Positions 14,778 to 53,210 of a stretch of 64,000 nt of DNA are shown here, piece after piece. The notes below the pieces were generated by a model. That model was not told the origin of the DNA, did no database searches, and saw nothing but the letters and a program-made list of their open reading frames with translations. The stretch is taken from assembly GCA_964016885.1 (NCBI GenBank), contig OZ024746.1, forward strand, positions 85,188,001-85,252,000, given 5' to 3'. Numbering within the stretch: position 1 is the stretch's first letter; the number at the start of each line of letters is the position of its first letter. The DNA comes from Eledone cirrhosa (lineage: Eukaryota). A program made the translations under genes and the position numbers.

Positions 14778-14817
14778 TTATCTTTATCAACAACTCCAGC
14801 AGCTTTTAAGGTGATAA

Positions 14818-15194
14818 TAATTGTTTCTACTTTAGGCACAAGGCCAGCAATTATCCCAGTGCATTACTGGTACTTTATTTTATCGACACCATAAGGATGA
14901 AAGGCAAAGTTAACTTCGGCGGGATTTGAACTCAGATCGTAAAAGGGCGTAACTCTATACTGCAAAGCATGGCATCTTACGCTCTACCGATACTGCCAAT
15001 CCACTAATAATTGATTCTACTTTTGGCACAAGGCCAACAATTATCCCAGTACATTACTGGTACTTTATTTTATCGACCCCGTAAGGATGAAAGGCAAAGT
15101 TAACCTCGGCGGGATTTGAACTCAAAATGGCAAGGGTCGTAACTCTATGTGTCAAAGCATGGTGTCCGACCCTCTACCGATACTGCCAATCCAC
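14818..15194 (-). mobile_element. Two tandem Nin/Deu-domain SINEs
   Basis: Two consecutive ~185-bp copies, each ending tactgccaatccac on the + strand. Confidence 0.85.
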
Positions 15195-15565
15195 CTAATT
15201 ATGATGGTGTGTAAGATAGGCCTAAGGCCACAAATTCTCGAACATTGGAATAGTCGATTATATTTGATTGTATGATATACATGACAGGTAGTTTATTTTA
15301 TTGACTCCTTTGAAGACCAAAGTCGACCTTGGAGATATTTTAACAGAGAACGTAAAGTGATTTACAGCAATAGTTAATAATACTAAAAATTAATATAAGT
15401 AAAAGGTCAAGCATATTCTTTTTCAGTAGGGATAAAGAATCACTAGATGAGATCAACTCCAGCATAGGATTTTAATAAATGATATAATGAGACATTGTGT
15501 GTACGTATGTATGGTCCTGTAACTTCTGATAGAGTCGTAGGAGCGCCGTATTGACATACAGCATT

Positions 15566-18961: not shown

Positions 18962-20312
18962 TCTCTCGGACAGATTAGGGATTAATCTGTTTCGCCCTGA
19001 GTGTGTTTGTAACAGATGGCCACCCAGCTCTCTTTCTGCTGAGGAACTGCTTCGCCATGCCGAAGCTCCTCTATACACTCCGCATCGCTCCATGCTACAC
19101 CAAGATATCTCTCCTCGCTGACCTCGATACTTGTATCCGAGCAGCAGCCGAGGGGATATGCAACGTCAAGTTTGACGACATAGGGTGGCAACAGGCCACT
19201 TTACCGGTCAGGTATGGCGGCCTAGGCCTCCGGTCCCCGATCTCACTAGCTCACTAGCGTATCTTCAGTCGGTAACCTCGTGCCGCGTCCTCGTCAGCAG
19301 GGTTCTTCAAAACACAACAGAACCCTCTGTGTTCAGAGAACGTGAGGCCGCCTGTGAGACGTGGGACCGGCTGGGACTTAGCCCAGTAGACGTCCCTCCT
19401 CCTTCTCCCCCTGTTGACGTCAAGTCCCCCCAACGCACTTGGGATGCCATCCAGTGCAGCCTGGCCTCAGACAGGCTCACGCGCCAGCTCGACCAGCACC
19501 GCCTTGCTTGTTTTCGTGCGGCCTCCAAACCCCACAGTGGTGTCTGGCTCCATGCTCTGCCCTCCTTCTCCACTGGCACGCAGCTAGACAACCATAGCCT
19601 GCGAATCGGCGTTTCCTTGAGGCTCGGCCTCCGGATCTGCCAGCCACACCAATGTCGCTGCGGTTCCACCGTGGACTCTTTCGGCCTCCACCCGCTTTCC
19701 TGTCGCCACAGTGCCGGCCGCATTCCACGCTATACTGCCCTCAACGAGATCATTAAGCATGGCTTGGATGCTGCAGGCTTCCCTTCCCAGCTCGAGCCGG
19801 TGGGGCTGGATCGAGGGGACGGCAAAAGGCCAGATGGCATGACCATCTTCCCGTTACGCGGTGGCAAACCACTCGTCTGGGATGCCACTTGCACCGACAC
19901 TTTCTGCAGCCGCAACCTGGTGCAGTCTGCGACTGACCCAGGTTCTGCTGTACGTCGGGCTGAGGGGGCCAAACTCCTCAAATACCGGTCGCTCTCCGAC
20001 AGGTTTGCGGTCGTTCCCCTGGCAGTGGAAACTTCTGGTGTCCTCGGCCCCAGGGTACCTCCTTACTCATCACCATAGGCGCTAAGCTGGCCAGCCGTAG
20101 GTGTGAGCCCCGCGAGTTGGAGTGGCTTTTCCAGCGCGTCTCCCTTGCCGTCCTCCGGGGAAATGTCTTCTCCATTCTGTCCGCCGGGGCTGTGGGTGGG
20201 CCCCATCGCGTACCATTATATTAGTTAAATACCATTCTTTCATCTCATACACATATATATATATGTATGTATGGGTTTACCTATAAAATCCACGGGCATC
20301 ATCAGCGAGAGA
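18962..20312 (-). ncRNA. Type I hammerhead ribozyme split in stem II by a CRE insertion
   Basis: 5' half TCTCTCG-CTGATGA-T-GCCC (20312-20294). 3' half GGGC-GAAA-CAGATTA-atccc-TAATCTG-TC-CGAGAGA (18997-18962). Stems I, II and III are all complementary. Confidence 0.75.
19015..20220 (+). mobile_element. 5'-truncated CRE-clade non-LTR retrotransposon (RT C-terminus, CCHC zinc knuckle, REL endonuclease), frameshifted
   Basis: HPALFLLRNCFAMPKLLYTLR, LPVRYGGLGLR, LRLGL..C..HQCRCG..VD..GLHPLSC, GLDRGDGKRPDGMTIFP..GKPLVWDATCTDT, VPLAVETSGVLGP. Frameshifts near 19250 and 20050. Confidence 0.88.
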
Positions 20313-21616: not shown

Positions 21617-21906
21617 GAATTGAAGTAAGTGACACTGTCGCTACTTTAAAACATTAGCGTAAGGTCTTCAAAATGCCTTTAATTAAGCATACAGTGTATT
21701 GCAAAATACACTATATATACATTCATATATATATCGCTATTTCAGAGCACCAATTCTAATATATATTTATATATACATATATATTTAATATAGAAATGGC
21801 TTCTACAGGACTAAAATTGTTTCATTAGGGAGAAATCATCTGCTATGTATTTAGTACCTTACTTACTGTGGTTACCCCCGATTGAACCCCGATAAACTTA
21901 TACATA

Positions 21907-22313: not shown

Positions 22314-22477
22314 GTTATTCCGAGTTGAATCGGAGGTTACCACAGTAAGTAAAGTACTCAATACATAGCAGAGTATAAAAGTTTTAATATAGAAGAGATT
22401 CTACAGGACTAGAATTGTTTCATCTTTTCTCACGAATGAAACAGTTCTAGTCTTGTAGAATCTCTTCTATATTAAAA
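22314..22477. mobile_element. Family B HHR element, head-to-head fragments
   Basis: Homologous to 24999-25269. Inverted junction near 22428 lies inside stem II, so both HHRs lack the CUGAUGA half. Confidence 0.8.
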
Positions 22478-22496
22478 TATTTTTATCGTGTATAGA

Positions 22497-24437: not shown

Positions 24438-24665
24438 TATGTATATGTATGTAACTCTCTCTACATATAGGCGTATATAAATGTATATATATATATGTAA
24501 TGTGTGTGTGTGTGTGTGTGCTTATGTATATGTATGTAACTTTCTCTCTACATATAGGCGTATATAAATGTATATATATATATGTAATGTGTGTGTGTGT
24601 GTCTGTGCTTATGTATATGTATGTAACTTTCTCTCTATATAGGCGTATATAAATGTATATATATA
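24245..24665. repeat. Higher-order microsatellite repeat (4 copies of a ~65-bp unit separated by (GT)n)
   Basis: gtgcttatgtatatgtatgtaact(t)tctctctacatataggcgtatataaatg is repeated. Confidence 0.85.
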
Positions 24666-24916
24666 TATACAATATGTAGAAAAGATAACACACCAGAGAG
24701 AGAGATAGTGCGCCATCAGTCAAACAGGGGCCTTCCATGGGCTATAGATTCCATACACTGGTGGTTTTTCCCTGTTTGACTGATGGCGCACTCTCTCTCT
24801 CTCTCTCTGGTGTGTTATCTTTTCTACATATTGTATTATAAAGGGCTCGGGAATCCTTCTCCTTTGAGCACATTACTGACAGGGAATAGCGAGAGTCTTT
24901 GGCTCCGTTAATTTAT

Positions 24917-24998
<82 letters not shown>

Positions 24999-25130
24999 GG
25001 TACGTTATTCCGGGTTGAATCGGAGGTAACCACAGTAAGTAAGGTACTCAATACATTGCAGAGTATAAAAGTTTTAATATAGATGAGATTCTACAGGACT
25101 AGAACTGTTTCATTCTTTAGAAATCATCAG

Positions 25131-25183
25131 GAGATTCCTGATGATTTCTAAAGAATGAAACAGTTCTAGTCCTGTAGAATCTC
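25131..25183 (+). ncRNA. Type I hammerhead ribozyme (family B, copy 1)
   Basis: GAGATTC-CTGATGA-tTTC taaa GAAt-GAAA-CAG ttctagtc CTG-TA-GAATCTC. Predicted cleavage after A25176. Confidence 0.85.
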
Positions 25184-25306
25184 ATCTATATTAAAACTTT
25201 TATACTCTGCAATGTATTGAGTACCTTACTTACTGTGGTTACCTCCGATTCAACCCGGAATAACGTACCTTTTAGCACTCTCTGTGCCCCTTATAACCAT
25301 CATCAA

Positions 25307-25359
25307 GAGATTCCTGATGATTTCTAAAGAATGAAACAGTTCTAGTCCTGTAGAATCTC
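25307..25359 (+). ncRNA. Type I hammerhead ribozyme (family B, copy 2, 176 nt downstream)
   Basis: Identical to 25131-25183. Predicted cleavage after A25352. Confidence 0.85.
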
Positions 25360-25579
25360 ATCTATATTAAAACTATATATATATATATATTGGTAAACGG
25401 AATAGAAAATGCTGACAAATTGTTCACAGTTGAAAAATGGTTTAATTAGGAATAAAAGAGTATTAGTAATTGTATGGGTTAGTATTCAGTTGTGGTTTTA
25501 AGTTTTTAAGTTTTTACCGGTTGCGAATTTCTAAATGCTTTTCAAAAATAATTTTGAGACAGAGTGTCCGTGCTGTTTG

Positions 25580-25703
<124 letters not shown>

Positions 25704-27898: not shown

Positions 27899-28473
27899 AT
27901 TGGCAGTATCGGTAGAGTTACGGCCCTTGCCATTCTGAGTTCAAATCCCGCCGAGGTTACCTTTGCCTTTCATCCTTACGGGGTCGATAAAATAAAGTAC
28001 CAGTAATGTACTGGTTAATTGCTGGCCTTGTTCCAATAGCAGAAACAATTATTATTAGTGTGAATTAGCAGTATCGGTAGAGGGTCGGACGCCATGCTTT
28101 CCAGTATAGTTACGCCCCTTTACGGTCTGAGTTCAAATCCCGTCAAGGTTAACTTTTCCTTTCATCCTTACGGGGTCGATAAAATAAAGTACCAGTAATG
28201 CACTGAGTAATTGCTGGCCTTGTGCCCAAAGTAGAAATAATTATTATGTGGATTGGCGGTGAATTGGCAGTATCGGTAGAGGGTTGGACGCCATACTTTC
28301 TAGCATAGTTACATCCCTTTACGGTCTGAGTTCAAATCCCGTCGAGGTTAACTTCGCCTCTCATCCTTACGGGGTCGATAAAATAAAGCACCAGTAACGT
28401 ACTGGGGGTCGATTTAATCGACTTTCCCTTCCCCTCAAATTACTGGCCTTGTGCCTATACTAGAAATCATTAT
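27899..28473 (+). mobile_element. Three tandem Nin/Deu-domain SINEs
   Basis: Three consecutive gcagtatcggtagag...ctggccttg copies. Confidence 0.85.
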
Positions 28474-49253: not shown

Positions 49254-49572
49254 AAAATGTTCAAGACCCCGACGGCAGAGCTCAAGCCGTTTCGACGGCT
49301 ATTTCTGAGTCCAGAAATAGCCGTCGAAACGGCTTGAGCTCTGCCGTCGGGGTCTTGAACATTTTCCTATTACCCACTCTACTACCCTAAGTATTGAATA
49401 CTCTGGTGCATTATGGTCCATCTAGTTCCTTACCACACTTCCTTCGTTATATATATATTTATATGTTTTTCCGAGTTTATCCGGGTTCAATCAGGTGTAA
49501 CCACAGTAAGTAAGGTAGTCAGTACATAGGAGAGTATATAAATGAAACAGTTCTAGTCCTGTAGAAGCCATT

Positions 49573-49610
<38 letters not shown>

Positions 49611-50954: not shown

Positions 50955-53210
50955 CTTTCTTTATTTGCCACAGGGGCGTACAAAAATGGGACATTACAAG
51001 ACGTGACGACAGGGGTTTTACATAAAAATAACTTTGACATTAATAAATAACAATAAACTATATATAATAAAATAACAATTGAAATCCCCAATAGGGGGGA
51101 ACGTTACTGCAGGGCTGTTTTACACCCCGTGGATAGAACAACCCTCAACACCAGGAACACATTTTGTAGGTGTTCCTGTCTTCCCTCTGTTTATCTTCCT
51201 CAACCTACAGGTTTATATACAGAGAAGGCCCATTCACTCGGGCCATTTTTGCCACATTCACCCACCTTTCAGCGAATTTACTGGGGTGTAGCACCTCTCT
51301 CTCCACTCTCACCTTCCTTCTGAAGTGATACTTAAAGAAGAGGATAAGTTGTTGTCCGGAGAGAAAGGTGTTTGCCCTGAGTCTTTTTAACCTCGTCCAC
51401 CATATTACCTCTTTCGCCATAGCCACCAGACAGAGGAAAACCGCCTCTCCTTCGTTCTTAAATGAAGGCGGCGGAATGACCCTCACAATGGACTCGGCTG
51501 ACAACTGGATGCGTCCCACATGTGACAGCAGCTGTTCGACATAATTCCACTGGTCGGTCACCCCTGGGCACTGAACAATTGCGTGCAGAACGGTTTCGAT
51601 GTCCTGCTCGCATCTTGGACAGGTCCTTTTGGCAGGATCTCTGCCAGGGCGTCCGTGCCTGTAGATTTTGTCTCGAATTGGTAGAGCTCCTCGGTAGCAC
51701 TGCCAGGCCAAAGACCTCTGGAAGTTATCCATAGGCCCTGGACGGAAAGTCCTCCCGAACAGACTGGTCAGTTCGTCCTCCTCGATGCCTAGAGTTTCCC
51801 CGAGGATGTCGTCGCACTTATCCTCCACTAACCTCCTATAGAATGTCGAAGTGGAGTCTCCGCTGATTGCCGTTTCCGCTTGGTAGGGGGCTGTGAGCGC
51901 CTGTAGGCACTCGAGGTGCCAGGCACCCATTTTCGGTCTTCGCTTGACCCAGGACTGCAGCTCTGTTAGTGAGACGAGTTGTGGAAGAGCTTGTCTCACA
52001 AACGACAGCCACACCGGTTCACCGGTCAGGAATACCTGGAGATGGCGTAGCCTCAGCGCATGTTTGCGCATCATCAGCCACGGCATGCCCAGCCCTCCGT
52101 TAGAAGGGTGTTGACAGCAGATGGATCTCCTCACCAATGGAGCCTGTTTCTTCCAGAGGAACTTGAAGAGTAGGCGTTCCATTTTGGTAAGGTATTCGCG
52201 GGGGCAAGGCGCGACTGTCAAGCGGTAGTAGATGACGGACGCTATGTAAGTGTTCGCCACCTCCACTCGACCTTTCAAGGAGAGTCTGCACTCAGCCCAC
52301 TTCTGGGTGAGTGCAAACACCTTCGCCGTGACCTCGTTCCAGTTCTTGTCCACCTGGAGGTCTGGACCGAACCAGACCCCGAGCAATTTCACCGGTCCTT
52401 CCGTCCAGCGTCCAACGACACTGTCGGAAGGCATGAGTTGCCTCTCCATGTGCCGAGTTGTAAACCGACAGACTTGTTTGGGTTTAGTCTTGCTCCTGTC
52501 AACGTTTCGTATTCCTGTAATAGGTTGTCGATTACTCTGATTTCCGAGGTTTTCGACACCATTACGGTTATGTCGTCGGCATAGGCTGACGCTGCTTTCT
52601 GCAGTCCTGGTTCGATCAGGATGCCCTGCAACAGCTCCAATTTCCTCAGTAACGGCTGAGAGTCAGTACATACAGAATGGAGGAGAGAGGGCATCCCTGA
52701 CGGATGGAACGCATGATTTGGAATGGCTCTGATAGGTAGCCATTCACCTTGAGAACTGCTTCCAAGTATTGATGGTCGACCCTATCAAATGCCTTAGACT
52801 GATCTAAATTGATCAGAGCCCCACCGAAGCCAGGTTTACACCCTACCCTCTCTATGATGTATCGCATGGGGTGGAGGTTGTCGTGTATGGACCTGGTCGG
52901 GATTGCACACGTTTAGGCTTCCCCTACCCGGTTCTCGACGACAAGCGCCAGCCTTGCTGCTAACACCTTGGCCAAAATCTTTAACTCTGCGGAAAGCAGC
53001 GTCAGCCTATGCCGACGACATAACCGTAATGGTGTCGAAAACCTCGGAAATCGGAGTAATCGACAACCTATTACAGGAATACGAAACGTTGACAGGAGCA
53101 AGACTAAACCCAAAGCTTATCTCATCCCCCTTGTTCTCATCTTTCCAGATCAGCGTCACTACGCCTCTGCCTACAGAACTGGGAACCCTCGCGTTCTGCT
53201 GCCAGTTGCA
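50955..53210 (-). mobile_element. 5'-truncated, rearranged Tx1/L1-clade LINE ORF2 (RT plus zinc-binding C-terminus)
   Basis: KILAKVLA, LINLDQSKAFDRVDH, IRQGCPLS, AYADD, LLGVWF, GGLGMP, CPRC..ETVLHAIVQCP. Frameshifts and deletions. Adjoins (TATC)n at the 3' end. Confidence 0.92.

Follow-up and report, generated by a model that had tools for sequence, protein, structure and literature searches.

A head-to-head insertion of Penelope-like element 5′-end sequence carries a retrozyme-sized hammerhead unit in Eledone cirrhosa

Penelope-like elements (PLEs) of the Hydra clade are defined in section 11 of PMC8557442 by RWK and DKT motifs, a CxCx5C linker, CxxC and CxH motifs and a C-terminal endonuclease (EN). 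The same section describes their insertion in (TA)n, and the paper gives them a tendency to be <3 kb. A PLE protein studied in vitro cuts and extends both strands and initiates at two internal RNA sites (PMC11167929). For the palindromic inverted joints of PLEs, self-priming on an antisense template has been proposed (PMC3846280). Retrozymes have been derived from the pLTRs of PLEs by an argument from co-occurrence and trees that left their mobilisation open (10.64898/2026.07.22.740005). Both inverted pLTRs and a PLE origin of retrozymes are already in print; the formation of tandem and inverted PLE ends, the role of the hammerhead and the origin of retrozymes are called open in PMC8557442, PMC11167929 and 10.64898/2026.07.22.740005.

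Here we describe a locus in a 64,000-nucleotide stretch of the E. cirrhosa genome (the window). A first-pass annotation, made from the letters alone, had proposed a young retrozyme at this place. We found a head-to-head insertion, a 376-base block of 5′-end sequence from an abundant Penelope-like transposon, whose features are collected in Table 1. Every base of the block matches the first 186 nt of the element. We therefore number positions as q (window position minus 25122), so that q10 corresponds to 25132 and 25308, and the predicted ribozyme cut falls after q54.

Architecture of the block and its hammerheads

The sequence bore out much of what had been noted. Two type I hammerheads lie 176 nt apart with GTA triplets ending at 25176 and 25352, which is the layout of a retrozyme. 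The palindrome of 24999-25269 is exact, with 24999-25132 and 25136-25269 forming reverse complements of 134 bp around the 3-nt centre GAT and extending no further, and (TA)n does stand on both sides of the block. The 176-nt monomer had been called perfect; the direct repeat (25123-25198 and 25299-25374; 76 bp at a spacing of 176) contains a single mismatch, 25130 G versus 25306 A. Because this mismatch falls outside the ribozyme, the two ribozymes proper are identical. The block was also taken for a young product of reverse transcription, in agreement with our finding that 25132-25308 differs from 11 copies bearing an open reading frame (ORF) at only 1 to 3 of 177 bases. The outer ends of the block, which abut (TA)n, are the two preferred 3′ ends of the family (q145-148 and q76). 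The inverted arm has one extra base at its outer end (24997-25002), which resembles a 3- to 4-nt re-start at the main priming site. Tandem Repeats Finder did not list the 176-nt repeat (1.4 units).

Table 1. Features of the block and its borders (window coordinates)
Feature	Positions	Strand	Remarks
Left (TA)n target microsatellite	24921..24997	.	38.5 copies, 100%
Inverted arm, q147 to q14	24999..25132	-	outer end at the family's main 3′ end (q141-148)
Head-to-head joint	25131..25135	+	G 25131, A 25132, centre GAT, 2-nt GA arm overlap
5′ end (pLTR + 5′ UTR) of autonomous PLE	25132..25308	+	98-99% identity
Hammerhead 1, type I	25132..25182	+	sequence; constrained fold; pair counts
Anti-core, 5′ UTR end	25299..25308	+	complements ribozyme core 25136-25145 at 9/10 bases
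Unique junction, UTR end (q185-186) to ribozyme start (q10)	25307..25308	+	
Second copy q10-q76, including hammerhead 2	25308..25374	+	predicted cut after 25352; its last base, q76, is the second 3′ end of the family
Cut-to-cut 176-nt unit, formal retrozyme monomer (putative product)	25177..25352	+	no gain in folding over shuffles, z -1.26
Right (TA)8 target microsatellite	25374..25389	.	sequence

In hammerhead 1, stem I pairs 25132-25137 with 25177-25182, stem II pairs 25146-25148 with 25153-25155, and stem III pairs 25160-25163 with 25172-25175. The core occupies 25138-25144, U25145 opposes U25156, GAAA lies at 25157-25160, the 8-nt loop of stem III is nearly palindromic, and the cut is predicted after 25176. 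A conserved type I core (CUGAUGA, GAAA and GUA) can be drawn with all three stems. An Rfam scan of the window returned nothing at the gathering threshold, and a loose hammerhead pattern alone gave 21 overlapping matches, a figure not far above chance, as one of 100 shuffles scored as high. What speaks for a real ribozyme in this candidate is its fixed place in the PLE and its likeness to published hammerheads of the Hydra clade. We examined pair variation in 16 chosen copies from one stem I length class, namely the window and 15 of 30 sister-subfamily loci; the 15 loci omitted mostly have a stem I one base longer. Across 13 distinct rows, 94% of the cells were paired and two pairs had double changes. 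This variation was not above that of shuffled controls (42 and 71 of 500), so the covariation is suggestive.

The U-U opposition at the base of stem II was first described as atypical, which is wrong. By our hand count, it occurs in 14 of the 25 Hydra families in File S2 of PMC8557442, and all 16 aligned copies, from the sister subfamilies and the window, have it. The hammerhead was not the lowest-energy form in unconstrained folding. The stem III loops of two copies can pair with each other, giving a dimer duplex of a predicted -14.8 kcal/mol. Such pairing between copies is what would be expected of animal hammerheads that act as dimers (PMC4209133); for predicted Xenopus hammerhead dimers, eight of nine are described as showing no cleavage (10.64898/2026.07.22.740005).

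Other repeats surround the block. To its left, 24663-24840 holds an inverted pair of a different repeat with arms of ~75 bp. The right flank (25391-25580) is again a different repeat and ends in (TA)n, and the block is therefore nested in the (TA)n end of another element; copies of this flanking repeat, with 80-87% identity, also stand beside the satellite on contig C28 (described below) and at one more locus (L088). Tandem repeats at 14815-15199 and 27912-28404, related to each other and with periods of 190 and 199 bp, probably belong to a SINE-like family. None of the 22 long open frames in the window overlaps the block. Two of them outside simple repeats, 19176-20078 (+) and 51205-52662 (-), are likely pieces of other retroelements.

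The parent element and the products of its family

To place the block, we searched the species' own genome (3.0 Gb), which gave 1407 candidates, of which 40 were scored and 53 matches listed. Among the matches listed, most align to 25136-25308 at 98-99% and then diverge from the window sequence. In intact copies, an ATG follows 5 nt past the counterpart of 25308. Of the eight copies that we extended, four (L032, L033, L034 and L038) have a complete ORF of ~713 amino acids, one of them with a longer tail. Its translation contains the reverse transcriptase (RT) motifs DIENYY, GASDS and YRDD and, at the C terminus, the GIY-YIG motifs VYKC..YIG. Pfam gave a weak GIY-YIG match (E 0.016) in one of two parent proteins and no match to an RT model, and the search against PDB returned no match; among its Atlas neighbours, at 0.96-0.99, are clusters of GIY-YIG and of RVT_1. 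The Hydra-clade motifs in the ORF are IRWRA, SDKT, CNCLNKEAC, CDLC and CMH, with RWR in place of RWK. Judged by these motifs, its hammerhead and its (TA)n target, the parent, an autonomous PLE, probably belongs to the Hydra clade. We also considered the Naiad clade and rejected it on the C-terminal EN and the presence of a hammerhead.

The unit of the parent runs from a promoter region through q10-186, the ORF, a 3′ UTR with a microsatellite and another promoter region to a terminal pLTR, which ends at q76, q82 or q146 in full-length copies. The arrangement of PLEs, a partial tandem with pLTRs accompanied by inverted 5′ copies and an optional tail, was found. The unit measures ~4.7 kb, above the Hydra tendency of <3 kb, because a TA/TG microsatellite of ~1.8 kb sits in the 3′ UTR (L152, 1723-3545; also L153 and L154). 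With this microsatellite, the autonomous element spreads its own target sequence. The family is large, its hammerhead being matched about 10,000 times in the genome. The native C precedes q10 in 8388 exact matches, at least 2,300 of them satellite, and G does so in 1999. Sister subfamilies contribute 8793 matches; L120-L149 represent them, with other stem I sequences and the same core, U-U pair, stem III loop and head-to-head joints.

The palindrome is a routine product of this PLE family, since exact matches to its 27-nt centre stand at 204 places in the genome. At 26 of the first 30 centre loci listed, some of which may be duplicates of one another (L074, L075), the arms end at q141-148 on one side and at q40-82, most often q76, on the other. 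The arms of the block, which end at q147 and q76, show the same pair. Synthesis of two cDNAs on opposite target strands, from two sites on the RNA, accounts for all 26 loci, and the arms of the palindrome are likely to come from two separately primed cDNAs. Three more short head-to-head products of the same family or its sister subfamilies lie in the window, at 21784-21898, 22314-22485 and 49470-49581.

We then considered where the templates end. In 1509 copies, a non-native base precedes q10, and the sequence before such starts is (TA)n, an inverted arm or other. In hand counts on the first entries listed, all on contig C1, this base was G in 81, A in 12 and T in 7 of the first 100 copies; at 43 loci joined straight to (TA)n, starts were spread over ~q4-q12, with G at 10 of the 12 to 13 q10 starts. 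A TATAAA lies at -30 from q10 in all seven ORF-bearing copies tested and at -29 in all three sister-subfamily copies. The start at q10 matches the initiator consensus YYANWYY. Starts at the cleavage site (q55) are ~20-fold rarer than q10 starts, the two patterns being of unequal stringency: 74 have a non-native base before them, of which stem I complementarity explains 33 by hand count, and 11 are joined to (TA)n. At the 5′ joints of full-length L1 copies, an extra G is a cap mark (PMC11702581); PMC6431247 has nothing about an extra G. The pile-up at q10 with its extra G and the scarcity of q55 starts point to a template of capped, uncleaved linear RNA and not to a circle. On these counts, the short products would be copied from such an RNA beginning on the first base of stem I, and in the window 25131 G would be the cap-derived extra base and 25132 A the start of transcription.

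The junction that creates the 176-bp unit was found once genome-wide by exact matching. Using a gapped pattern, we detected 13 UTR-to-ribozyme junctions at seven loci, the window included, representing seven distinct junctions; these numbers are a lower bound, because the pattern was limited to a 30-nt range and exact flanks. The units at these loci measure 168, 173, 176, 177, 191 and 195 bp, and the seventh locus has one ribozyme only. Three of the seven junctions, including that of the window, have G right before q10, and in L002 this G is untemplated. Native upstream bases are retained at three others, and the last starts at q11, which indicates that not every jump begins at q10; four of the seven fall at q10-q11. 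At the window junction, the overlap is one base (A) with the native upstream sequence and two bases (GA) with the G-extended start. With one junction per locus, these units point to repeated independent births without spread. Counting copies and comparing unit lengths, as had been suggested, thus gave other retrozyme-sized units (168 to 195 bp); the window junction itself, by exact matching, is single and has founded no multi-copy retrozyme family.

Longer arrays also occur. L012 (G000:C4:279228999-279230000) is a 191-bp tandem arranged head-to-head, with four full units, three of them identical, and L003 (G000:C9:23835284-23836583) is a 195-bp tandem, likewise head-to-head. Each repeats one junction on both arms, over 4 to 6 units. 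L012 and L003 may be derived from circles, as a circular or tandem template fits them better than repeated jumps. A third multi-unit tandem array, L083 (G000:C1:67880733-67881419), has a period of ~221 bp. Together, by their sequences, L012, L003 and L083 are the best candidates for circle-templated retrozyme insertions.

A 78-bp satellite starts at position 30496955 of contig C28 (G000:C28; L104-L119), each unit of which is a whole family hammerhead. Its junction has 2308 exact matches on one strand, and the first 100 listed comprise 96 on C28 and 4 on C1. The satellite opens like an ordinary insertion, with (TA)n and then an inverted arm from q145, and contains higher-order repeats; its joint is present in raw reads of other individuals. 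Eight units of the 78-bp ribozyme repeat at another locus (L100, G000:C1:350200314), with flanks that lack (TA)n, may have been dispersed from the satellite.

Origin of the block and competing explanations

The simplest path to the block is a routine head-to-head product with one jump. We consider it probable that two separately primed reverse transcriptions took place on capped, uncleaved linear PLE RNA, one of them jumping once and so adding the extra 176-bp unit. According to this model, RNA polymerase II would start where stem I begins (q10), the TATA box 30 nt before it being part of the 3′ UTR of an upstream copy. The element's protein would nick both strands of the (TA)n target and prime cDNA inside the RNA at two places, q145-147 and q76. 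Both cDNAs would extend to the cap, each acquiring a C. The q76 cDNA would then re-prime by annealing its terminal TC to GA at q185-186, either on its own template or on a second RNA, and would reach the cap once more. Joining of the cDNA ends by a 2-nt overlap would complete the palindrome. The anti-core, with its 9/10 match to the ribozyme core, would keep the sites of the jump close together.

A true retrozyme insertion, which we hold unlikely, would have involved a 176-nt circle from a parent dimer elsewhere, around which the PLE protein reverse-transcribed ~1.4 turns for one strand and 0.76 turn for the other. The size and layout of the unit agree with those described for non-LTR retrozymes in PMC7229834. 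Moreover, the right arm crosses the junction, and annealing of the anti-core over its 9/10 match on a circle could form the same centre, so that the window locus alone is compatible with a circle; on a circle the G at 25131 would be templated, and the multi-unit L012 and L003 look circle-templated. However, no second locus has the window junction, the 204 copies of the centre need no circle, and the right arm terminates exactly at the family's start site. The parent itself would also need a jump, which adds steps. At this locus, the end signatures favour capped linear RNA over a circular template, one of the templates first proposed: the junction is unique and both 5′ joints lie at the presumed capped start with its G. 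The first-pass annotation had also proposed a fold-back, that is, a palindrome made by a single cDNA copying itself. At this locus a fold-back is formally possible, with a right arm that spans all of q14-q147 and arms that are identical; self-priming has been proposed for PLE palindromes, as noted above, and snap-back occurs with R2 (PMC11371274). Yet at 12 of the 30 centre loci the inverted arm exceeds the opposite arm in length, and there a fold-back is excluded because the copy cannot outgrow the loop-bearing arm that it copies. In addition, the place where the inverted arm stops is not random but is the main priming site of the family, and the stem would be just 2 bp. We accordingly regard a fold-back as very improbable, and its earlier proposal as unsupported.

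Another route would begin with a full-length insertion (an inverted pLTR, the whole element and a terminal pLTR to q76), followed by a DNA deletion that removed everything from the end of the UTR to the second ribozyme. Full-length copies do terminate at such sites, and microhomology deletions of PLEs have been reported (PMC3846280). This route is improbable in our judgement: the overlap with the native upstream sequence is 1 nt only, the deletion must end exactly at q10, four of the seven junctions fall there or one base on, and the G at the L002 junction is untemplated. Least credible is an assembly artefact in the palindrome or duplication. Such structures are described as difficult to assemble (PMC8557442), and none of the six sequencing runs searched contained a contig or read across the locus or its junction. 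This blank says little, because the runs are fragmented contigs or reduced-representation reads. Against an artefact stand the 204 identical centres, the family-typical ends, the six analogous junctions elsewhere and the mismatch between the repeats.

Would the locus, once formed by two primed cDNAs and a jump, release the 176-nt circular RNA that was first ascribed to it? It has no promoter, and the inverted arm occupies its upstream side. Folding predictions for a read-through RNA put the cost of forming the first ribozyme at 73 kcal/mol and that of the second at 6, and for a transcript from 25131 the cost of both at about 8. Since there is no promoter and the first ribozyme is predicted to be buried in a read-through RNA, release of a 176-nt circle by this locus is unlikely, and the claim that one is encoded here was not supported. 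The locus would be a retrozyme unit that is newborn and probably inert.

A wider reading, for which we find the balance even, is that the PLE cycle can be followed base by base. Capped RNA would begin at the first hammerhead base, priming would take place at two sites on both strands, and the cap would act as a strong stop, followed by a join or a jump. Joins would give inverted pLTRs; a jump to the 3′ repeat would give a promoter and tandem, as in LTR elements; stray jumps would give new ribozyme units time and again, and the locus described here would be one such birth. Other stray jumps would have led to multi-unit arrays and, in one case, to the 78-bp ribozyme satellite of >2,300 units.

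Comparison with known systems

PLE activity has left many small by-products, of which the window locus is one, and the element is probably a new member of a known clade. The value of the locus is as an entry point to a very young and very large family with countable junctions. These counts give testable answers: templates end at the capped stem I start and not at the cleavage site, arms are separately primed, and retrozyme-sized units recur. If the model of origin is true, the block would show how ribozyme repeats, or retrozymes, are born. In the literature that we searched, which takes in few subscription papers, we found no publication of this base-level PLE signature (the stem I start, extra G, paired start sites and independent junctions).

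The closest described elements are the Hydra clade PLEs of Craig et al. 2021 (PMC8557442). Like them, the parent has a C-terminal GIY-YIG EN, an RWR motif (RWK in that paper), DKT, CxCx5C, CxxC and CxH motifs, (TA)n targets and inverted 5′ copies. Its hammerhead is likewise canonical and shares the U-U opposition at the stem II base, the ACAG/CTGT pairing of stem III and the GUA triplet. In contrast to the generally <3-kb members of the clade, it has ~4.7 kb and a 3′ UTR microsatellite, and its hammerhead, with an 8-nt stem III loop, differs from all File S2 entries, including Hydra-1_Obim.

The block shares its tandem type I hammerheads, its non-coding nature and a 176-nt unit with the non-LTR retrozymes of Cervera and de la Pena 2020 (PMC7229834), and it contains what the structural definition of a retrozyme names (two or more complete type I hammerheads in succession, with a unit of ~170-400 nt). 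Its relation to a PLE pLTR is of the kind that Li et al. 2026 (10.64898/2026.07.22.740005) argue for retrozymes. Unlike those retrozymes, the block has a one-off junction without a family, no more than 1.4 units and no promoter; its ribozyme is buried in a 134-bp hairpin, and its circle is putative. The step of birth can be read base by base at this locus because the unit is 98-99% identical to a PLE with intact ORFs.

The head-to-head arms, the palindromic joint and the tail by which one arm is longer recall the inverted pLTRs of Adineta vaga Penelope (Arkhipova et al. 2013, PMC3846280), and the two internal start sites recall Poseidon PAc (Frangieh et al. 2024, PMC11167929). The tail measures ~70 nt in the present family and not 30 to 40 nt as described for those two elements. 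Compared with the model put forward for A. vaga, our data favour two primed cDNAs on sense RNA with a capped start over self-priming on an antisense template. Twin priming of L1 (PMC11702581) is similar in that two target strands prime cDNA and that complete 5′ ends carry an extra G. It differs in that both arms here begin at fixed 5′ UTR sites and run to the 5′ end of the RNA, and for this reason the arms are inverted copies of the same sequence.
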